DNA of 64,000 nucleotides from an uncultured delta proteobacterium (GTDB lineage: Bacteria > Myxococcota_A > Polyangia > Polyangiales > B10-G4), in the NCBI GenBank assembly GCA_963727445.1, contig CAVSGI010000013.1:273316-337315 (forward strand), read 5' to 3'. A program made the position numbers and the translations under genes. This document shows, piece by piece, positions 2,390 through 61,640 of the stretch (positions within the stretch are counted from its first letter, which is position 1; each line of letters opens with the position of its first letter). Below the pieces are notes generated by a model that did no database searches, had not been told where the DNA came from, and worked only from the letters and a program-made list of their open reading frames with translations.

Positions 2390-2800
2390 TCAGTACGCGC
2401 GCTTCATCAGGCCGTTCACTTCGCTCACCTGCTCGTTCATCGTCCAGTAGTCGTAGAGGACGCCGAGCATGAGGAAGCCGCCCGTGAAGAAGTAGAGGAT
2501 CGCGCTCAGGGCCTTGCCCATGTAGAGGCGATGCGCGCCGAAGGGGCCGAGGAAGGTCAGCAGGATCCAGGCGAAGTCGTAGCTGACCTCACCGTCGCGA
2601 TACTTCGAACGCGCGTTCCGGGCGAGGAAGGGCATCAGGAAGAGGTCGAGGAACCAGCCGATGCCGAGCAGGCCCAGGGTGAAGAACCAGATCGTTCCGG
2701 AGATGGGCCGGCCGTAATAGAAGCGATGGGCCCCCGTGAAGCCGAAGATCCACAGGAGATAGCCCATCAGGAGGCTGTGAGAGTCGCTTCGTTCCGCCAT
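2390..2800 (-). CDS. TM2 domain-containing membrane protein.
   Basis: Duplicated 'GAHRFYYG' / 'GAHRLYMGK' motifs typical of the TM2 domain. ATG at 2800 (MAERSD...). Confidence 0.65.
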   Translation of the reverse strand: MAERSDSHSLLMGYLLWIFGFTGAHRFYYGRPISGTIWFFTLGLLGIGWFLDLFLMPFLARNARSKYRDGEVSYDFAWILLTFLGPFGAHRLYMGKALSAILYFFTGGFLMLGVLYDYWTMNEQVSEVNGLMKRAY

Positions 2801-2907
2801 GTATTTCCTTCTACGTGGACGCCTGACCGGGTATTTCGATCTCGGCCGTGCCATGGCCCCGATTTGTGGTAGCGTCCGCGTCGCTGTCACAAGGAGACGT
2901 GCTCCCC

Positions 2908-3189
2908 ATGAAGGCCTATCACATCGTTATCGCTTCGTTTTTCGCCCTCGTCCTCTCTGCCTGCGGTGGAGGTAGCGAAGGGGACAGCTGCCACACGGAC
3001 GACAACTGCGGCAGCGGTCTGATCTGCGCCCACATCGCGGTCTGCGGCCCCGACAACCTCGACTCGTGCCCCGGCATGTGCGGCCAGCCCTGCGAGACGG
3101 ACGAGGAGTGCCCGACCAACCTCTGTGGCGCCACCATCGGCGGCATGCGCATCTGCCAGGAGTCGATGGCACCGATGCCCACGCCCTGA
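2908..3189 (+). CDS. Small cysteine-rich lipoprotein: 94 aa, with 10 Cys after the lipobox.
   Basis: AAGGAG Shine-Dalgarno at 2891-2896, ATG at 2908. MKAYHIVIASFFALVLSAC|GGG lipobox, then CHTDDNCGSGLICAHIAVCGPDNLDSCPGMCGQPCETDEECPTNLCG. Confidence 0.55.
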   Translation: MKAYHIVIASFFALVLSACGGGSEGDSCHTDDNCGSGLICAHIAVCGPDNLDSCPGMCGQPCETDEECPTNLCGATIGGMRICQESMAPMPTP

Positions 3190-5766: not shown

Positions 5767-7299
<1,533 letters not shown>

Positions 7300-7354
7300 G
7301 TGGCGCCAGATGCTACATGGGGGGAGAGGGCTTCGCGACTCTTTCCTAAGACTC

Positions 7355-8245
7355 ATGGCACTCGACGAATGGCTCGCGATCGACGGCGTTCCGAGGGACG
7401 AAGCGCCCGAAGAGCACCGCGATGCGGAGGGGATCGCCGTCCGCAGCGACGCCCTCGTGTCCGTGGAGAGAGGGCGGATCACGGTGGTCCCCTGGACCTC
7501 GGTGCTGTCCGTGGTCCGGGTCGAAGATCGGGTCTACGCGCTCTGCCCGAGGCGTCCGCCCGCGCCCCCGTGGATCGAGATGAAAGCCTCCCACGCCGAG
7601 GCCATCGGCGAGACGCTCGACTCCTTGCGCGACAACCTCGCCGCGCGCGCCAGCCGCCGCGGATACCGGGAGGCGGGCCCGACCCGATCGCTGCTCTCGC
7701 CAAAGGAGCTCTTCGATCGCCTGATCGCGAAGGACCCGGTTCCCGGGACGGTGGAGGTGCCCGTCGGCTACGGGCCGGGCGGACGCACCAGGCTGACAAC
7801 GCGCATCGGACAGACCATCGCCGGGATGGGGATGGGCGCGCTGGGTGGCGTGTATGCGGGCGCCATCCTTCAGGCGATCTTCGTCGCACAGCCGGCGGTT
7901 GCGTTCATCGTCGGCATGGCCTCCACCACCACGGCGGGCGGCGCCGGTATGCTCTACCTGGCGCGTGACAAGAAGGGGCAGGGTCGGGTCCTGGCCCTCG
8001 CGCCCGACGGCATGGTCATCGGGCTGCCCCAAGGCGTCCGGGCGTATGGGTGGCAGGCGATCGGAGGGTTCCGCGGCGAAGAGCGCGTGCTGCCCGATGG
8101 GTCGGGCCGCTCCTTTCCGCACCTCGTGGTGCAGGGCAGCGACGAGCGCGAGATCGGTGCGATCCACGAGGCCTGGTTCGACCGCCCCCTCGACCTCATC
8201 GTCGCCGTCGCCGAGGCCTATCGCGCGCGATTCTCGAAAGCGTGA
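7355..8245 (+). CDS. Hypothetical protein with a central Gly-rich hydrophobic segment.
   Basis: ORF 7310..8245 with good codon bias. ATG at 7355 chosen (MALDEW...). The start is uncertain. Confidence 0.4.
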   Translation: MALDEWLAIDGVPRDEAPEEHRDAEGIAVRSDALVSVERGRITVVPWTSVLSVVRVEDRVYALCPRRPPAPPWIEMKASHAEAIGETLDSLRDNLAARASRRGYREAGPTRSLLSPKELFDRLIAKDPVPGTVEVPVGYGPGGRTRLTTRIGQTIAGMGMGALGGVYAGAILQAIFVAQPAVAFIVGMASTTTAGGAGMLYLARDKKGQGRVLALAPDGMVIGLPQGVRAYGWQAIGGFRGEERVLPDGSGRSFPHLVVQGSDEREIGAIHEAWFDRPLDLIVAVAEAYRARFSKA

Positions 8246-8273
8246 CGCCCGCCGCAGTCGCCGCGGTCAACCG

Positions 8274-8368
8274 ACGGGGACGGTCTACACTTTTCAACTT
8301 TCGGCGGTGTCAACTGACGGGGATGTCAACTGACGGGGACGGTCTACACTTTTCAACTTTCGGCGGTG
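8274..8368. repeat. REP-like element locus A. Two direct copies of ACGGGGACGGTCTACACTTTTCAACTTTCGGCGGTG (8274-8309 and 8333-8368) separated by a partly duplicated 23-nt linker.
   Basis: Exact 36-nt duplication read in the sequence. The same core recurs at ~27.7 kb and ~55.8 kb. Confidence 0.85.
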
Positions 8369-8562
8369 ACGCCGGTCTCAGCCGCCGAGAGATCGCCGCG
8401 TGCCTGGGCACGTGATGCTCGCCGTAGTCGCCGTGAGGGACGAGGTGTCCAGGTGCGTCAGCCGCCGAGCGCCCCCGCAGGCGCCGACTGAGGCGCACTG
8501 AAGATGCGTCGCAAGGAGGCGTCGAGGAGGAAAGCCGGCGGATGACGTGCCTGGGCGCCTCG

Positions 8563-9378
8563 TCAGGGCTCGGACCAGTAGTCCATGCCCTTCCGCGCCT
8601 CCGCCATGATCTCGACAGCGACGTCGCGGAGGGCGGCGTTGGTCGCGAGGACGCGGCCGCGCTTCATGTCGAGCGGGCGGCCCGTGTAGTCGATGGCGTG
8701 ACCCCCGGCTTCGCGCACGAAGAGCGCACCCGCGGCCATGTCCCAGATCTTGAGCTTCTGCTCCCAGAAGACCTCGTAGGTGCCATCGGCGACCATCGAG
8801 AGATCGAGCGCCGCAGCGCCGCAGCGCCGGATGCCGACGGTGCGCTGGATGAAGGCCGACCACTCGCGGAGGTTGTCGTCCTTGGTGGTGTGACGGTCGT
8901 AGGGGAAGCCGGTGGCGCAGAGCGCCTTGCGCATGTCGTTCGCCTCGCTGACCTTGCAGGGCGTCTCGTTACGGAGCACGCCGCTGCCCTTGCGCGCCTT
9001 CCAGCACACGTTCAGAGAGGGCGCGAAGACAACGCCCGTAACCGGCTCGAGGTCCTTGCAGAGCGCCAGGGAGATCCCCCAGTACGGATGTCCGTGAGCG
9101 AAGTTCGTCGTCCCGTCGATCGGGTCGACGTACCAGACGTATTCGGCCGAGTCGTCCTGCTCGCCCTCCTCGCCAACGACCGAGGTCCCGGGGAAGGAAG
9201 CCGCGAGCTGGCCACGGATGTAGTCCTCCGACTTCACGTCGTACTCGGTGACGAGATCGATCTCGCCCTTGAGCCGGATGTTCACCGGCTTCCGGTAACC
9301 CTCGAGGACCAGCTTCCCGGCCTCGCGGGCGATGCGCTCCGCCTCGGTGACGGCCTCGTCCAGCTCGCGTTCGTTCAT
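8563..9378 (-). CDS. suhB: Inositol monophosphatase family protein.
   Basis: 'WYVDPIDGTTNFAHGHPYWGISLAL' and 'WDMAAGALFVREAGG' IMPase motifs. ATG at 9378 (MNERELDEA). Confidence 0.8.
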   Translation of the reverse strand: MNERELDEAVTEAERIAREAGKLVLEGYRKPVNIRLKGEIDLVTEYDVKSEDYIRGQLAASFPGTSVVGEEGEQDDSAEYVWYVDPIDGTTNFAHGHPYWGISLALCKDLEPVTGVVFAPSLNVCWKARKGSGVLRNETPCKVSEANDMRKALCATGFPYDRHTTKDDNLREWSAFIQRTVGIRRCGAAALDLSMVADGTYEVFWEQKLKIWDMAAGALFVREAGGHAIDYTGRPLDMKRGRVLATNAALRDVAVEIMAEARKGMDYWSEP

Positions 9379-9391
9379 CGTCCCATCCTCG

Positions 9392-10810
9392 CTAACCCCG
9401 GAGGGCGAGCGATACCAGGACTCGGTCGTAGATGCCACCGAAGGCGCCGTTGCTCATCAGCACCACGGTGTCGCCGGGCCGCGCTTCGGCGCGGAGCTGC
9501 TCGACGATGGCGTCGATCGATGGGGCCGCGGTCGCGCTCCGCCCCGTACTGGCGATGCTCTCGACGATCGACGCGACGTCCAGACGCTCGGCGTCCTCGA
9601 TCTCCGGCCGCCCCACCGGCGCGAGGATCGTCACGTCCGCCGGCCGGAAGGCACGCGGATACTCGGCCTGATGTAGATTGCGCGACGCCGTCGCGCTCCG
9701 CGGCTCGAAGACGCCGAAGAGTCGGCCCTCGGGGTGCCGGGCGCGCAAGCCGCCCAGGGTCTCGCGCACCGCCGTCGGATGATGAGCGAAGTCCTCGTAC
9801 ACACGGACGCCGCCGGCGATCCCGATCAGCTCCTGTCGTCGCCGCACGCCGCGGAAGCTCCGCAGAAAGCCGCCGAGATCGCGCACGGCGATCCCCTGCG
9901 ACTCGGCCGCGAGCGCCATCGCCGCCACCGCGTTCTTCAGGTTGTGCCTCCCGCTCAGCGGCGAGTACATGCGTCCCGCGGAGGTGCCGCCGATGAAGAG
10001 GTCGAAGGGATGCGCGCCGCCTTGGGGCGCGACCTCCGCCGCGAGCCAGGTCGGCGTCACGTCGCCGGTGTCCTCGCCGTCGAGGGCGTAGTACACGACG
10101 CGGCATTGGGCGCGCTTCGCCACCGCGCGCACCTCCGGATCACCGGCCCAGGCCACGAGCACGCCCTCGGGATCGATGCGCTCCACGAAGCCGTCGAAGG
10201 CGGCGCGATAACTGGCCATGTCCGGATAGATGTCGATGTGATCGTGCTCGAGCGAGGTGAGGATCGCGGCGTGGGGCTCGTATCGCCAGAACTTCGGCTT
10301 TTTCTCGAAGAAGGCGCAGTCGTACTCGTCGCCTTCGATGACGAAGGGCGCGCGCTCGCCGCCCAGACGATAAGCCGCCTCGAAGTCGCGCGGGACGCCG
10401 CCCACCAAGAAGCCGGGGTCCTTGCCCGCCGCATGCAGCAGATAGGCGAGGAGGGCGGTGGTCGTCGTCTTGCCGTGAGTGCCCGCGACCACGAAGCCGG
10501 GGCGCTCCGCGAGGAAGATCTCTTCCATCGTCTGGGGAAAGCTCGCGTAGCGCATGCCGCCGTCGATGGCGGCGCGCGCCTCGGGATTGTCGCGACGGCA
10601 GACGTTGCCGACGACGACGAGGTCAGGTGCAGGCTCGAGGTTCTCCGGGCGGAAGCCCTCCATCGTCTCGACGCCCCAGCGCACCAGCGCTTCGCCCATC
10701 GGAGGATAGAAGGCGGTGTCGGATCCCGTGACCCGATGCCCGGCTGCGCGCAGGAGCCCCGCGAGCGCACCCATCCCCGTGCCTGCCACGCCGATCAGGT
10801 GTACGTGCAT
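9392..10810 (-). CDS. mpl: UDP-N-acetylmuramate:L-alanyl-gamma-D-glutamyl-meso-DAP ligase (Mur ligase family, Mpl-like).
   Basis: MHVHLIGVAGTGMGALAGLLRAAGHRVTGSD N-terminus. Mur ligase P-loop 'AGTHGKTTTTALLA'. ATG at 10810. Confidence 0.75.
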   Translation of the reverse strand: MHVHLIGVAGTGMGALAGLLRAAGHRVTGSDTAFYPPMGEALVRWGVETMEGFRPENLEPAPDLVVVGNVCRRDNPEARAAIDGGMRYASFPQTMEEIFLAERPGFVVAGTHGKTTTTALLAYLLHAAGKDPGFLVGGVPRDFEAAYRLGGERAPFVIEGDEYDCAFFEKKPKFWRYEPHAAILTSLEHDHIDIYPDMASYRAAFDGFVERIDPEGVLVAWAGDPEVRAVAKRAQCRVVYYALDGEDTGDVTPTWLAAEVAPQGGAHPFDLFIGGTSAGRMYSPLSGRHNLKNAVAAMALAAESQGIAVRDLGGFLRSFRGVRRRQELIGIAGGVRVYEDFAHHPTAVRETLGGLRARHPEGRLFGVFEPRSATASRNLHQAEYPRAFRPADVTILAPVGRPEIEDAERLDVASIVESIASTGRSATAAPSIDAIVEQLRAEARPGDTVVLMSNGAFGGIYDRVLVSLALRG

Positions 10811-25888: not shown

Positions 25889-27394
25889 ATGCCCGACAGC
25901 GTGCTCCCCAGCCTCGATCAGATCCGAGATCTGGAGATCCTGATCAAGGCGCACCACCCGTTGATCCTCATCGAGACCATCGAAGAGGATCGGGTCGGCA
26001 CGCTCATCGAGTACCTCGCCGACCGGCTGAAGCTGCCCCTCTACACCTGGACGGCGCACCGCGGCCTCTCCACCGCCGAGGGTCCGCCCCTGGCGGGAAC
26101 CGACGCCGCCGACCGCATGCTCGACTTCGTGGCCCAGAGCAACGCCGAAGCGCTCTATCACCTCCGCGGTTTCACGCCGGCCTTCACGGACCCGCCGCTG
26201 GTGGCGCGCCTCAAGGATCTCTACAAGCAGCTCTTCGCCCACCGGGGCGCGCTGATCATGACTGGGGTGGACGCGAGCCCGTCGCCGGACCTCGAAGCGC
26301 TCTTCACGGTGGTGGACCTCGAGCCGCCGACGCCCCACGCGTATTACCAGTTCGTCTCCAACGTCCTTCGCGACCTTCGAAAGCGCATGGAGATCCAGGT
26401 CGACCTCTCGGGCGAGGACGTGGCGGTGCTGCTGAGCCACCTGCGCGGGCTGACGTTCTTCGAGGTGAAGAAGATCGTGACCCAGGCGGTGATCGAGGAT
26501 GGGCGCCTCGACCGCAGCGACATCGAGAAGGTGCTCGAAGCCAAGAAGCGCGCGATCCAGCGCTCGGGCGTCCTCGACTACTACCCGGCCGACCAGAGCC
26601 TCGGCGACCTGGCCGGCCTCGACAACCTCAAGACCTGGCTCCGCAAGCGGAAGAACGCCTTCGCCAACCCCGACGAGGCCAAACGCTTCGGCCTGAGCGC
26701 GCCCAAAGGGCTGTTGCTGCTGGGGGTGCAGGGCTGCGGCAAGAGCATGTGCGCCAAGGCGGTCGCCGCGGAATGGCAACTGCCGCTGATCCGCCTCGAC
26801 CCGAGCTCGCTCTACAACAAGTTCGTGGGCGAGTCGGAGAAGAACCTGATGCGGGCGATCAAGACCGCCGAGCAGATGGCGCCCATCGTCTTGTGGATCG
26901 ACGAGATTGAGAAGGCCTTCGGCGGTCAGGAGGGCTCCGGGAGCGACTCGGGCACCACCAGCCGCATCTTCGGCACGTTCCTGACGTGGCTCAACGACAA
27001 GAAGGAGAGCGTCTTCGTCATCGCCACGGCGAACGACATCTCGCGCCTGCCGCCCGAGCTCCTTCGCAAGGGCCGCTTCGACGAAATCTTCTTCGTGGAC
27101 CTGCCCGACGCCGAGACCCGCGCCCGCATCTTCGCCGTGCATCTGAGCCGCCGCGATCGGGCGCCGGAGGGCTTCGATCTCGAGGCGCTGGCGGCCGCGA
27201 CCGAAGGCTTCAGCGGTGCGGAGATCGAGCAGGTGGTGATCAGCGCGCTCTACACCGCCTTCAGCGATGGCCGTGCGCTCGACGACGTGCTGCTCCTCGA
27301 AGAGGCGCGCGGCACCCGGCCACTGTCGGTGACCATGGGCGAAAAGATCGCCGAGCTCCGCGCCTGGGCGGAGGACCGCGCCGTCCCCGCCTGA
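25889..27394 (+). CDS. AAA family ATPase (Ycf46-like: N-terminal domain plus a C-terminal classic-clade AAA module).
   Basis: Walker A '[15 protein letters not shown]', Walker B '[12 protein letters not shown]', second region of homology '[25 protein letters not shown]'. Confidence 0.8.
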
Positions 27395-27572
27395 CCTTTC
27401 ACTCCTGCATTTTCATCATTGCAGATGCGAAGGATTTGCGGCTGTCGCGGCGCGAGTTCGGCAATGATTCTCCGACTGACACCCTTGGCACTCCGTTTGC
27501 TTTGTCTCCCTCGCGAAGCGACAGTGGGTGAAAGCAACCCCCCCCCACGCCGACGCCCACGCGCTTCAATCT

Positions 27573-27618
27573 GGCCCGCGATCGTACCCCCCACGGTCGC
27601 GGGCCTTCATTTTTGTCG
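27573..27618 (+). terminator. Rho-independent terminator-like hairpin (GGCCCGCGATCG-loop-CGGTCGCGGGCC) followed by TTCATTTTTGTCG.
   Basis: 12-bp GC stem with one mismatch, 9-nt loop, T-run. It lies ~180 nt downstream of the AAA gene stop. Confidence 0.5.
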
Positions 27619-27697
27619 TGTCGGATCGGCGGCGCCGTGACTCGACAACGGGCGGGTGCGTGAAGGCCGGCCGGGAGGCGGGATGCGCGTTTCGCTT

Positions 27698-27858
27698 CAC
27701 GGGGACGGTCTACACTTTTCAACTTTCGCCTTGGCCGCGGGTATGCGGGTGGAACCCCGACGTGCGTGGCGAAAGTTGAAAAGTGTAGACCGTCCCCACT
27801 AGCCTGCGGGTGGAACCCCGACGTGCGTGGCGAAAGTTGAAAAGTGTAGACCGTCCCC
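27698..27858. repeat. REP-like element locus B. One forward copy (27698-27730) and two reverse copies (27770-27797, 27831-27858). A 53-nt unit (GCGGGTGGAACCCCGACGTGCGTGG plus the reverse copy) is tandemly duplicated.
   Basis: GGGGACGGTCTACACTTTTCAACTTTCG and its exact reverse complement were read directly. They can form a ~28-bp stem. Confidence 0.85.
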
Positions 27859-27859
27859 A

Positions 27860-29086
27860 TTAGCCTTCGGATCGGTATTCGAGGTAGCCGCTGACCAGGG
27901 CGTCGTAGAGCCAGCCGGCGACGATGCGGCGGCCGTGCGGGCTGAGGTGCTTGAGGTCCGAGGCGGCGAGGCCCTCGTGCAACCACCGGCGAAAGGAGCC
28001 GGCGCCACCCATCGCGGCGTAGGTGTCGAAGAAGGCGCAGCCGGCCTCGTGCGCCGCCGCCCGCTGGGCGTCGACCGCGGCCTGCACCTCCTCGGGACGA
28101 ATGTGGCTCCGGCCGCTCATCTCGTGCTCGATGATCCCGGTGAGGAGGCAGCCCGACTCGGGCAGAGCGCTCCGCACCCGCGCCAGCACCCGCCGGGTCT
28201 CCTCCTGAAACTCCGCGGAGGAACCCGCGCGCCCCACGTGGCGGCGCAGGTCGTTTCCGCCGTAGGTGAGGATCACCAGGTCCGAGGCCCGGGCGCGGAG
28301 CTGGCCGGCGAAATGTGGCTCGTCGTACTCGAGGAGCCGCGTGGTGAAGGCGCCGATCATCGACAGCGTGTCCCAGACCACCCCTGGCCCGTCGGTCTCG
28401 AGCACCACGCCATACGCGCGCGTGCGCCCGCCGCCCGCATGGCGGAGCCGCACCTTGTGGTGACCGGCGGGCATGCGCATGCGATGGAAGCGGTCTTCGA
28501 GCGCCTCCGCCGCCGTGTCGAAGATCAGCTCGGGCTCGCCGTCGACCTTCAGTCCCAGCCGCCCGCCGCGCCGCTGCGTCGCGTACCACAGCTCGAGTCG
28601 ACTCGCGGTCGTGCCGTATCCGCCCTCGCGGCGGGTCTCGATGATCGTACGCGCCCCCCGCGAGCCGAGGGTGGCGACGCCCCCGAGACCGTAGTGGCCG
28701 TCGTCGAGGCAGCGGAAGATCAGGTAGCAGAACTCCCATGGCGGACGGTTCGCCAGGTGAACGGTGTTGTTGCGGTACGAGGTGGAGTGCGGTTGTGCGA
28801 GGACGAAACCGGTGCCGCCGTCCCCGAAGCGATCCTGAAAACGGCGGCGGAGGTAGTGAGGGAGCTGATCCATCCCGATAGAGGAGTCGCCCATATGGGT
28901 CACGCGGGTGATGGCACCCCTCGCGCCGTCGTCGGTGCGCGCGAGCGCGCGGTAGAACCCGTCGAGGGAGTGGGCGGGGTCGGTGATGGGATGCTCCGCG
29001 GCCCGCGGATCACCGTCGCGCGGCTGCCAGCTCGGGGTCGCTGGCCGCACCGGCGAGGGGGCCGGTGCGTCGACCGCTGGCGGCAC
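27860..29086 (-). CDS. SGNH/GDSL-family hydrolase, probably a lipoprotein. The N-terminus is unresolved.
   Basis: 'VTHMGDSSIGMD' (block I Ser) and 'ILTYGGNDL' (block III). An in-frame upstream lipoprotein signal RLFAALACSLALASC lacks a canonical start codon (see finding). Confidence 0.65.
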   Translation of the reverse strand: MPPAVDAPAPSPVRPATPSWQPRDGDPRAAEHPITDPAHSLDGFYRALARTDDGARGAITRVTHMGDSSIGMDQLPHYLRRRFQDRFGDGGTGFVLAQPHSTSYRNNTVHLANRPPWEFCYLIFRCLDDGHYGLGGVATLGSRGARTIIETRREGGYGTTASRLELWYATQRRGGRLGLKVDGEPELIFDTAAEALEDRFHRMRMPAGHHKVRLRHAGGGRTRAYGVVLETDGPGVVWDTLSMIGAFTTRLLEYDEPHFAGQLRARASDLVILTYGGNDLRRHVGRAGSSAEFQEETRRVLARVRSALPESGCLLTGIIEHEMSGRSHIRPEEVQAAVDAQRAAAHEAGCAFFDTYAAMGGAGSFRRWLHEGLAASDLKHLSPHGRRIVAGWLYDALVSGYLEYRSEG

Positions 29087-55774: not shown

Positions 55775-55786
55775 CCCCGAATGCTA

Positions 55787-55975
55787 ACGGGGACGGTCTA
55801 CACTTTTGAACTTTCGCGCCGCCCAGCCAACGGGGACGGTCTACACTCTTGCACTTTCGGGCCGCCCGGCTTCGGAAAGTGCAAAAGTGTAGACCGTCCC
55901 CATCAGAGGCGGTCCCCATCAGAGGCGTCCCCGTCAGAGGCGGGGGACGGAAAGTGCAAAAGTGTAGACCGTCCC
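55787..55975. repeat. REP-like element locus C. Two forward copies (55787-55816, 55830-55860) and two reverse copies (55873-55901, ~55948-55975), plus three tandem 15-mers CCCC(A/G)TCAGAGGCG(G/T) at 55898-55943.
   Basis: Variants GGGGACGGTCTACAC-TTTTGAACTTTCG and -TCTTGCACTTTCG and their reverse complements. The inner pair forms a ~28-bp hairpin. Confidence 0.85.
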
Positions 55976-55977
55976 CG

Positions 55978-57135
55978 TTAGAAGAGGCGGGTGACGATGG
56001 TGTCTAGGTGGAGCCAGCGGTCTGGGGGGACACAGAGGTGGGTGGCGTCGCGCCGGAGGTCGCCGGATTCGAGGGCGCGGGCGATGGGGCGGGCGCGAAC
56101 GGTGCGGGGATCGAGGCCGGTTCGGCGCGTGACGTCTTCGAGATCGACGCCTTCGCGGGTCCTCAAGCCGAGCATCAGCGCCTCGTTGAGCAGCGTCTCC
56201 GCATCGAGATCCTCGCTCTCCATCTCGAAGCGCCCCTCGCCCACCGCGGCCACATAGTCCTCGCCCACCGCCACGTTCCGCCACCGCCGCGCCCGACCCG
56301 CACCCTCTTCCAAACACCCGACCGCCGCCGCCCCCAACCCCAGATAGGCGCCCCCCCGCCAGTAGTGCTGGTTGTGCAGCGACTCCTCACCGGGCGCCGC
56401 GTAATTGCTCACCTCGTAATGCGCGAGCCCATACGCCGCGAAACGCGCCTCCGCCGCAACGAACATCGCGGCGTAGTCGTCTTCCTTCGCCACCTCGAGC
56501 CGCCCCTTGCGATACAGCTCCCCGAACTGCGTCCCCGGCTCGATCGTCAACGCATACGCGGACACGTGCCTGAGCCCCATGTCCAATAGACGCGTCAGGT
56601 CGTCGTCCACCGACGCCTGCTCCGGCATGCCGAACATCACGTCCGCGCTCACCCGGGGCACTTCGGCCATCGCCGCCTCGAGCGCCGCCCTCCCCTGCGC
56701 CGCATCGTGAAAGCGCCCGAGATATCTCAGCCGCGCGTCGTCGAGGCTCTGCACCCCCACGGAGAGCCTCCCCACCCCGGCCGCGACCAGCGCCGCCGCG
56801 TGCCCGCGATCCAGCGACGAGGGGTTGCACTCCACCGTCACCTCGACGTCCTCCGCATGTACGTCGAACGCAGCGCGCACACCGGCGAGCACACGCCCCA
56901 GCGCCTCCGCCTTCCACAGCGAAGGCGTGCCGCCACCGAAGAAGACGCTGATCAACCGCCGGCCCGCGAGCGACGTGCGCCGCGCCTCGAGCTCCGCGAG
57001 AACCGCGTCCGCATACGCGTCGTGCGGCACGTCCCCGCGATCGATCTTACGCGTCGCGAAGTCGCAGTACGGGCACTTCTTCAGACACCAGGGGAAGTGG
57101 ACGTAGACGGATGTGTCAGTCGCTCGAGGCGCCAT
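55978..57135 (-). CDS. hemW: Radical SAM heme chaperone HemW (HemN-like, oxygen-independent coproporphyrinogen oxidase family).
   Basis: 'VYVHFPWCLKKCPYCDF' CxxxCxxC radical-SAM motif. HemN C-terminal domain. Confidence 0.8.
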   Translation of the reverse strand: MAPRATDTSVYVHFPWCLKKCPYCDFATRKIDRGDVPHDAYADAVLAELEARRTSLAGRRLISVFFGGGTPSLWKAEALGRVLAGVRAAFDVHAEDVEVTVECNPSSLDRGHAAALVAAGVGRLSVGVQSLDDARLRYLGRFHDAAQGRAALEAAMAEVPRVSADVMFGMPEQASVDDDLTRLLDMGLRHVSAYALTIEPGTQFGELYRKGRLEVAKEDDYAAMFVAAEARFAAYGLAHYEVSNYAAPGEESLHNQHYWRGGAYLGLGAAAVGCLEEGAGRARRWRNVAVGEDYVAAVGEGRFEMESEDLDAETLLNEALMLGLRTREGVDLEDVTRRTGLDPRTVRARPIARALESGDLRRDATHLCVPPDRWLHLDTIVTRLF

Positions 57136-60776: not shown

Positions 60777-60968
60777 GGGGCGCCGATGCTACTGCCACGC
60801 CTCCGCTGGGGGTAGACCCAGAGGAGGTCGCCCGGATGGCGTCCCAGGATGTGGGCGCGACCTCGGATCGAGGACCTCGAAAACCCCGACTTCCTTCCAC
60901 CCATCGCTGGCGGTACATTAGGGGGACATGAAGGAGTAGGCCGCGACTCGGGCGCGGCGAGGACGGGA

Positions 60969-61640
60969 ATGGGAAATCGGATTTACGTGGGGAACCTGTC
61001 GTACGGCACGGCGGAAGACGGGCTCAGGGCAGTGTTCGAAGAGAGCGGCTACAAGGTCTCGGACGTTCACATAGTCACGGATAGAGAGACGGGTCGCTCC
61101 CGCGGCTTTGCTTTCGTCGAAGTCGAGGATAGCGGGGCGCTCAGCGCCGCCATCTCGTCCCTCGACGGAAAGGAAGTCGATGGGCGTCGGCTCGCACTGA
61201 GCGAAGCACGACCACGTCGCCCTCGCGAAGGCGGTGGTGGTGGTGGCGGTGGCGGCCACGGCGGTCACGGCGGCGGCGGCGGCGGCGGACGCTACAACAA
61301 CGATCGCCGGCCACCGGTGCAGGAACGGCGGCGCCCCTACGGCGGCGGCGGTGGTGGCGGTGGTGGCGGTGGCCACAGCAGCAGCGGCGGCGGCCCTCCC
61401 GGCGGCGGCGGTGGTGGCGGTGGTGGCGGTGATCGCCCGCGCCGCAGCTTCGACAACTTCAGCGCGGGCCCGCCGCCCGATCCGCTGGAGCAACCCTCTG
61501 GCCGCGCCAGCAAGCGTCGCAAGAAGTGGGACAACAAGGATCGCGACGGTGGCGCGGGTCGCAGCGATGACCGCCGCGGCAACAACCGCCGCTCGGGCAA
61601 CCGCAAGCGCCGCGGCTGGGACGACGAAGGCGACTGGTAG
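60969..61640 (+). CDS. RRM-type RNA-binding protein with a long Gly-rich and Arg-rich C-terminal tail.
   Basis: RNP1/RNP2 'IYVGNLSY' and 'RGFAFVEV'. ATG at 60969. GGN-repeat DNA at 61230-61430. Confidence 0.75.
   Translation: MGNRIYVGNLSYGTAEDGLRAVFEESGYKVSDVHIVTDRETGRSRGFAFVEVEDSGALSAAISSLDGKEVDGRRLALSEARPRRPREGGGGGGGGGHGGHGGGGGGGRYNNDRRPPVQERRRPYGGGGGGGGGGGHSSSGGGPPGGGGGGGGGGDRPRRSFDNFSAGPPPDPLEQPSGRASKRRKKWDNKDRDGGAGRSDDRRGNNRRSGNRKRRGWDDEGDW

Follow-up and report, generated by a model that had tools for sequence, protein, structure and literature searches.

Background

MITEs are defined by terminal inverted repeats of at least 10-15 bp (PMC11602168). RUP (the repeat unit of pneumococcus) and other IS630-type bacterial MITEs resemble the repeat family described here: they are about 100 bp long, non-coding and intergenic, and their long terminal inverted repeats fold into one hairpin. 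RUP is likewise highly conserved, and it clusters and nests with other copies. Clustering and nesting are known for pneumococcal MITEs (PMC10969869), and RUP uses TA targets (PMC2229807). Unlike for RUP, no cognate IS with matching ends was found for the present family, its flanking dinucleotide is also CA, AT or GA (Kofleriaceae element included), and two variable nucleotides lie between its core and the putative duplication. Correia/NEMIS of Neisseria and ERIC are orphan MITEs with inverted repeats of ~26 bp; the genes next to them are transcribed together with them, and the hairpins either undergo RNase III cleavage or alter the stability of mRNA 3' ends (PMC10969869). The present family is comparable in having perfect 30-bp stems in 3' UTRs and between hemW and ccmA, whereas no promoter-like or IHF-like motif was detected in it, and its host phylum and sequence are different. 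REPIN and REP/BIME repeats are comparable in being extragenic, in forming hairpins from inverted doublets, in occurring as solo units and in building ordered tandem clusters that copy their flanks (PMC3116915). Such ordered REPIN clusters consist of "tandem repeats ... including the flanking sequences" (PMC3116915). In contrast to REPIN/RAYT systems, the present unit is not palindromic, and no RAYT was found in the 64 kb analysed.

MITE- or REP-type repeats are hardly described in Myxococcota, and nothing on the topic was found in the literature searched. The sole paper found with both "miniature inverted-repeat transposable" and "myxobacteria" is about Acidobacteria, and Myxococcota are absent from the main text of a large MITE survey (PMC11602168).

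This work describes a repeat family in a 64-kb stretch of myxobacterial DNA, hereafter called the window. Most likely it is a MITE-like hairpin repeat, a small non-coding mobile element that is restricted to a single uncultured lineage of myxobacteria and has inserted directly behind the stop codons of ordinary genes. It is a fresh example of a familiar type of genomic parasite and no new kind of system. Knowledge of the family helps to avoid calling false genes across the repeats and accounts for the contig breaks and widened spacers of these metagenome-assembled genomes; it also provides a marker of recent genome dynamics in an uncultured lineage.

Repeat units in the window

The window is ordinary chromosome with 67-73% GC, encoding the end of gyrB, a Mur-ligase family enzyme, ClpB, BamA, TamB, CcmAB, HemW, DnaJ and similar functions. 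The best named relatives of its HemW and SGNH hydrolase are found in genome bins of Polyangiales, Sandaracinaceae and Nannocystaceae (48-62% identity), which places the source among uncultured Polyangia-type myxobacteria. Among ~40 ORFs of the window, Pfam detected housekeeping families only and no transposase, integrase, RAYT or phage family; the repeats therefore do not lie in an IS or prophage, a possibility that a first-pass annotation of this DNA had raised.

Of the 36-mer ACGGGGACGGTCTACACTTTTCAACTTTCGGCGGTG there are exactly two copies, 8274-8309 and 8333-8368, separated by 23 nt. In the linker TCAACTGACGGGGATGTCAACTG, the unit's 5' end and its flank are in part duplicated once more. 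The earlier description of this pair is confirmed. The 15-mer GGGGACGGTCTACAC has nine mismatch-free copies across three intergenic loci of the 64-kb window:

Locus A: 8276 (+), 8335 (+)
Locus B: 27701 (+), 27783 (-), 27844 (-)
Locus C: 55789 (+), 55832 (+), 55887 (-), 55962 (-)

The chance expectation from shuffled sequence is 0.14 copies, and nine copies were reached in 0 of 100 shuffles. This confirms the count of nine copies in both orientations, at gene ends of three loci, given in the first-pass annotation. The repeat unit measures 27-33 nt and has the consensus ctRAY-GGGGACGGTCTACACTyTTsmACTTTC-g. In the nine-copy alignment, 24 columns of the 27-nt core are invariant, and the ctRAY 5' of the core is looser. 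The core is AT-rich relative to the 69% GC genome. An nhmmer profile found no diverged extra copies in the 64-kb window, and the 357 nt past its right edge (L129) hold no repeat copy. All nine copies are located outside coding sequence, save for an overlap with stop codons.

Organization of the three loci

The units and partial units are arranged as follows.

Locus A, between the convergent genes for a hypothetical protein (7310-8245, +) and an inositol monophosphatase (8563-9438, -)
8271-8303, +, unit A1: direct solo arm with core 8276-8302, 30 nt past the TGA (8243-8245) of the hypothetical gene 7310-8245
8310-8324, +, partial unit TCAACTGACGGGGAT: re-duplicated 5' flank and first bases of the unit
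8330-8362, +, unit A2: tandem copy of A1 with a period of 59
Locus B, between the convergent genes for an AAA ATPase (25889-27394, +) and an SGNH hydrolase (27860-29086, -)
27696-27728, +, unit B1: left arm of the complete element B1/B2 (about 27699-27799), the arms being complementary at 30 of 30 positions
27770-27802, -, unit B2: right arm of element B1/B2
27831-27863, -, unit B3: 61-nt tandem duplicate of B2 and its flank (27805-27865 against 27744-27804, 98%)
Locus C, between the co-directional genes hemW (55978-57135, -) and ccmA (start 55735, -)
55784-55816, +, unit C1: outer arm of a nested cluster, ~50 nt upstream of the ccmA start
55827-55859, +, unit C2: inner arm, pairs with C3
55874-55906, -, unit C3: inner arm, pairs with C2
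55896-55946, -, three tandem mini-repeats of 15-16 nt (CCTCTGAyGGGGACsG): flank and 5' end of the unit, between C4 and C3
55949-55981, -, unit C4: outer arm, its TAA (55978-55980) being the hemW stop codon

At every locus a unit has been duplicated in tandem along with its flank. At locus A the copied block 8325-8368 matches 8266-8309 at 98% and includes the flank GTCAACyGA, and C1 and C2 repeat with a tandem period of 43 nt. The SGNH hydrolase gene (27860-29086, -) ends on the TAA of unit B3 (27860-27862). An independent Logan assembly of this organism (L117) is 99.9% identical to the window over 8.3 kb and agrees with cluster C at every base; its nine differences from the window all fall outside the cluster. 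Cluster C is therefore not an assembly artefact.

The spacer of locus A also contains a second small repeat, a 23-mer (CGTGAyGC..GCCG) at 8241-8263, 8365-8387 and 8411-8433 (78-87% identity), which begins at the stop codon of 7310-8245, recurs directly after A2 and is found again 46 nt on. There is also an imperfect inverted repeat of 29 nt (8439-8467 and 8536-8564), which reaches into the inositol monophosphatase gene at its 3' end.

Hairpin formation and RNA signals

A single 41-nt unit neither folds nor is palindromic (minimum free energy -7.1 kcal/mol against -8.1 +/- 2.2 for shuffles, z = +0.47), and the direct pair of locus A does not fold either (z = +0.22). Inverted pairs form perfect or near-perfect stems of 26-32 bp in hairpins that are 70-100 bp long. 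Folding them had been proposed as a check in the first-pass annotation, and z-scores of -9 to -14 were obtained in the window. The values below include an element on a metagenome contig (L118).

B1/B2 hairpin: -73.7 kcal/mol, z = -10, stem of 30/30 bp
C2/C3 hairpin: -55 to -61 kcal/mol, z = -9 to -11
L118 hairpin: -73.3 kcal/mol, z = -7
Whole cluster C, nested hairpin (55780-55985): -143.9 kcal/mol, z = -14

Inverted doublets are B1/B2, C2/C3, C1/C4 and the L118 element, while locus A and B3 are direct copies, a tally that covers four loci only. No T/U-tract follows the hairpins, and no terminator-like or promoter-like call was made at any repeat. Since they have no U-tract, the hairpins are not canonical intrinsic terminators, and the terminator role suggested earlier is not borne out. 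The sole terminator-like call is a separate conserved hairpin at 27573-27605, adjoining locus B. No IHF-like motif was detected at the repeats, and no Rfam family reached its gathering score there. At a relaxed threshold Rfam gave only sub-threshold matches of a generic long-hairpin kind to eukaryotic miRNA precursors, and these were rejected.

Next to locus B, a sigma-54-type promoter motif (TGGCAC-N5-TTGC) is present at 27486-27500 (+), ~75 nt before the canonical terminator 27573-27605, which is followed by TTCATTTTT. Promoter motif, C9 run and terminator of the segment 27486-27615 are kept in three related lineages (L124, L125, L126), and the terminator stem shows one compensatory change among the relatives. 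Judged from these sequence features, the segment, which follows the AAA ATPase gene downstream, is a candidate for a sigma-54-dependent small RNA of ~100 nt. Rfam gave no match to it, and it may resemble Pxr of Myxococcus. In one related lineage (L126, about 2470-3160; also L127 and L128) an extra segment of ~700 bp is located between this candidate and the AAA ATPase gene. It carries a Thr/Pro-rich tandem-repeat ORF (DTSTTP x5) and is absent from the window and L125.

Empty sites in related lineages

The spacer between hemW and ccmA measures 242 nt in the window and 31, 59 and 18 nt in three relatives (L121, L122 and L123, respectively), whose HemW is 74-76% identical and which have the same gene order (RNase T, hemW, ccmA, ccmB). 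The codon position of the hemW stop is unchanged between these relatives and the window, and L121 and L122 also have the TAGCAT motif that adjoins C1 on its right. At locus B, the distance from the SGNH hydrolase stop to the conserved terminator hairpin is 254 nt in the window against about 4-39 nt in relatives with homologues of 76-82% identity (L124, L125, L126-L128). About 165 nt of these 254 nt are made up by the three units, and ~85 nt are other sequence. No family member was found in ~62 kb of the relatives' DNA. The orthologous hemW-ccmA and SGNH-terminator spacers are thus without repeats in five related metagenomic lineages (74-82% protein identity), and from this sequence comparison it follows that the repeats are lineage-specific insertions. 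The ~85 nt between terminator and B1 (27615-27698) have no counterpart in the relatives and do not belong to the repeat family; they contain a 7-bp inverted repeat (CGTGAAG..CTTCACG).

Dispersal beyond the window

A scan of JGI metagenomes with the 27-nt degenerate motif returned one contig only (L118), which is a fourth, independent locus. Its flanks are unrelated to the window, and the element is located at the 3' end of a 193-aa gene that we take, from its sequence, to be AMMECR1-like. Positions 10-109 of this contig comprise a whole arm-loop-arm element with 82% identity to B1/B2 over 112 nt, loop included, and both elements turn the same arm toward the 3' end of the adjacent gene. Within an element the two arms carry the same variant (CAAC in B and L118, GCAC in C2/C3); arm, loop and arm were therefore copied as a unit. 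Four loci are documented in all. The first-pass annotation had treated restriction to the three window loci as a sign of locus-specific duplication; within the window no more than these three were found, but the metagenome contig adds a locus outside it.

None of the 116 loci among the listed genome-contig matches to the 15-mer has the full 27-nt motif, and these matches are mostly chance hits across phyla. Two 16-mer matches on viral contigs were both due to chance, and blastn of the elements against plasmid and phage collections gave nothing or GC-rich chance matches only. The repeat-encoded peptides are found in no predicted protein among 5.8 billion clusters. The ORFs that run through the copies (GTVYTFQLS and other peptides) are artefacts, as first annotated, no database protein sharing their peptides. 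No mention of the repeat sequence string was found in the literature. With one further JGI contig only and no protein containing repeat peptides, the family may be small. Neither the window, nor 120+ other loci, nor the plasmid and phage collections yielded an autonomous element or a transposase bounded by these ends. A full-length IS would show an inverted partner of the end some kilobases away; the search of all loci examined for such partners returned the Kofleriaceae MITEs only.

A related element in a Kofleriaceae bacterium

Kofleriaceae bacterium SMAG_U5129 carries at least three copies of a MITE-like element of ~225 bp:

L109, 5057-5263
L035, 3553-3779
L008, 5032-5258

Its outer inverted repeat GGGGACGGTCTACACTAACGAAACTT begins with GGGGACGGTCTACAC and is followed by a variable segment of ~35 nt, an inner repeat, a variable centre of 40-60 nt and then the mirror image. 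The inner repeat (AGGGACGsACTAAAGCGA), present at each end, resembles the terminus (GGGACGGnCTAmA). Two tiers of conserved end repeats are the look of multiple transposase-binding sites in transposons, and by this analogy the two tiers of the Kofleriaceae element are putative sites of that kind. The element ends adjoin genes: in L035 a TAG directly precedes GGGG, in L008 a TAG and 4 nt do so, and in L109 one end abuts a start codon.

With the window family this element has in common the identical terminal 15-16 nt GGGGACGGTCTACAC(T), an intergenic position and the abutment on stop codons. Two of its three copies have 2-bp flanking repeats, as does part of the window family. It differs by its greater length, by the inner part of the inverted repeat (TAACGAAACTT), by the extra inner repeat and by its variable centre, and its host belongs to another order.

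Target sites and stop codons

Target duplications, which in MITEs span 2-10 bp, were scanned for at offsets of 0-8 and lengths of 2-5 in seven complete elements (window, L118 and Kofleriaceae). Identical dinucleotides flank four of the seven at 2 nt outside the GGGG core, namely TA (C1/C4), CA (C2/C3), AT (L035) and GA (L008), while all other settings gave two matches at most. The match is absent in the remaining three elements, and the two nucleotides between core and putative duplication vary, which is, to our knowledge, unusual for transposon termini. No target duplication of 3-5 bp was found at offsets of 0-8. The dinucleotide statistic is about 5e-4 uncorrected and about 0.004-0.02 after accounting for the offsets tried and GC bias. 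As a target-site duplication, the 2-bp match is therefore suggestive and no proof. A TA is present at a fixed offset on five of the seven outer ends of the window family. The element boundaries are uncertain, since the ctRAY stretch 5' of the core has inverted symmetry of its own and runs into host stop codons.

At loci B and C the host stop is a TAA inside the 5' extension of the unit (GGC TAA T|GGGG and TTC TAA C|GGGG). In the four cases with verified stops, from the window and Kofleriaceae, the distance from stop to core is 1, 1, 0 and 4 nt. In L118 the core starts 7 nt past the TAG annotated as the stop, and an in-frame TAA lies 1 nt ahead of this core. This closeness could stem from a preference for TA/AT-rich targets, the genome having 69% GC, together with selection against gene disruption, or it could be a real specificity instead. 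That the window and Kofleriaceae families form a Polyangia-wide element group whose transposase inserts essentially at the stop codon is a distinctly unlikely, more far-reaching form of the latter. Were it true, the 3' UTR behind every copy's gene would open with a perfect hairpin. Insertion directed to stop codons, or selection for such insertion, would be a target specificity out of the ordinary, with built-in effects on mRNA 3' ends, and if the closeness reflects target choice, the transposase would itself be one of unusual specificity.

Origin of the repeat family

We favour, with modest confidence, a lineage-specific MITE-like family of miniature non-coding mobile elements in a Polyangia-type myxobacterium, amplified locally. 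The elements have terminal inverted repeats, complementary at 30 of 30 positions in B1/B2 and over about 26-32 bp in C and L118. The complete elements measure ~74-101 bp, within the MITE range of 50-800 bp, and have no coding capacity, and presence and absence alternate at orthologous sites when the window is compared with the five related lineages. The 33-nt unit would then be the terminal inverted repeat, and the mobile entity the arm-loop-arm hairpin of ~70-100 bp (B1/B2, ~27699-27799; C2/C3, ~55830-55903; L118, 10-109). A DDE-type transposase that binds GGGGACGGTCTACAC would mobilise the elements in trans, and copies would have entered short, AT-richer spacers directly past stop codons. 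The loci may subsequently have expanded by tandem duplication of arm and flank (periods of 59, 61, 43 and 15 nt), and the four-arm cluster C may have arisen by nesting or duplication. Locus A would represent two tandemly duplicated solo arms and a partial third; as it does not fold and has no partner in inverse orientation, this locus is probably a remnant that no longer moves. In transcripts, whether within 3' UTRs or between cistrons, the elements would give perfect 30-bp RNA hairpins that act as RNase III substrates or 3'-exonuclease barriers and not as classical terminators. If such hairpins are processed, the expression of hemW-ccmAB and other genes would be altered.

The first-pass annotation had assigned the repeats to the REP/BIME type. 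A dispersed, extragenic family of mixed orientation was indeed found, but its unit is not palindromic (z = +0.47), although an imperfectly palindromic unit is what defines a REP, and a MITE-like anatomy fits better because of the 30-33 bp terminal inverted repeats around a variable loop, the whole copy in L118, the Kofleriaceae element and the 2-bp repeats at four of seven elements. REP/REPIN families comprise tens to hundreds of extragenic copies per genome, with inverted doublets predominating and the cognate RAYT gene flanked by repeats. A REP/REPIN family mobilised by a single-copy RAYT (an IS200-like tyrosine/HUH transposase) acting on single-stranded hairpins would account for highly conserved extragenic sequences, for inverted doublets that form hairpins, for solo units resembling decayed remnants, for tandem clusters that copy flanks as REPIN clusters do (PMC3116915) and for the three of seven elements that have no convincing target duplication. 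The GTAG on the complementary strand (GTGTAGACC) also agrees with it, although this GTAG is located away from any unit-internal stem. Given that the unit is no imperfect palindrome, that four of seven elements have 2-bp flanking repeats, that no Y1_Tnp or RAYT was found among ~40 window ORFs and that the related Kofleriaceae element of ~225 bp has two-tier end repeats typical of DDE-transposon ends, we judge this origin unlikely.

A cis-element selected by the host, either an RNA hairpin or a protein-binding site in mRNA decay, processing or termination, that was spread by recombination is quite improbable. The extreme conservation of the core across loci and a second sample, its AT-richness in a 69% GC genome and the position of the first unit, which always follows the upstream stop in sense orientation (0-4 nt in four verified cases, 7 nt in L118), are consistent with such a function, and stems of 30 perfect base pairs would make strong RNase III or exonuclease-blocking sites, with precedents in Correia and ERIC (PMC10969869). 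However, the repeat is absent from the same gene ends in the five related lineages, and it is because all relatives lack it that host selection becomes less likely; moreover, locus A consists of direct copies without structure, there is no U-tract, promoter-like signal or Rfam family at threshold, and a canonical terminator already adjoins locus B. Local duplication alone or an artefact of assembly, without any mechanism of dispersal, would explain the tandem duplication of unit and flank at every locus, but hardly a 27-nt core shared by three loci 19 and 28 kb apart and by an unrelated metagenome contig, and cluster C is reproduced exactly by an independent assembly; this reading is highly implausible. 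CRISPR arrays were rejected based on the mixed orientation, the irregular spacing (23, 28-54 nt) and 'spacers' that are partial repeats, and integron attC, uptake-sequence and sigma-54 enhancer-site identities based on misfits in orientation, spacing or length or on absent partner motifs.

Coding repeats elsewhere in the window

Two ORFs of the window contain repeats of their own. ORF 5767-7482, whose protein has thrombospondin type 3 (calcium-binding) repeats, includes four tandem 99-nt coding repeats at 5846-6241 (-) with 66-73% identity. The product of ORF 60849-61640 (+) is a bacterial protein with an RRM_1 RNA-binding domain and a long low-complexity tail rich in Gly, which is built from 9-nt repeats of the GGCGGTGGT type at 61205-61457.
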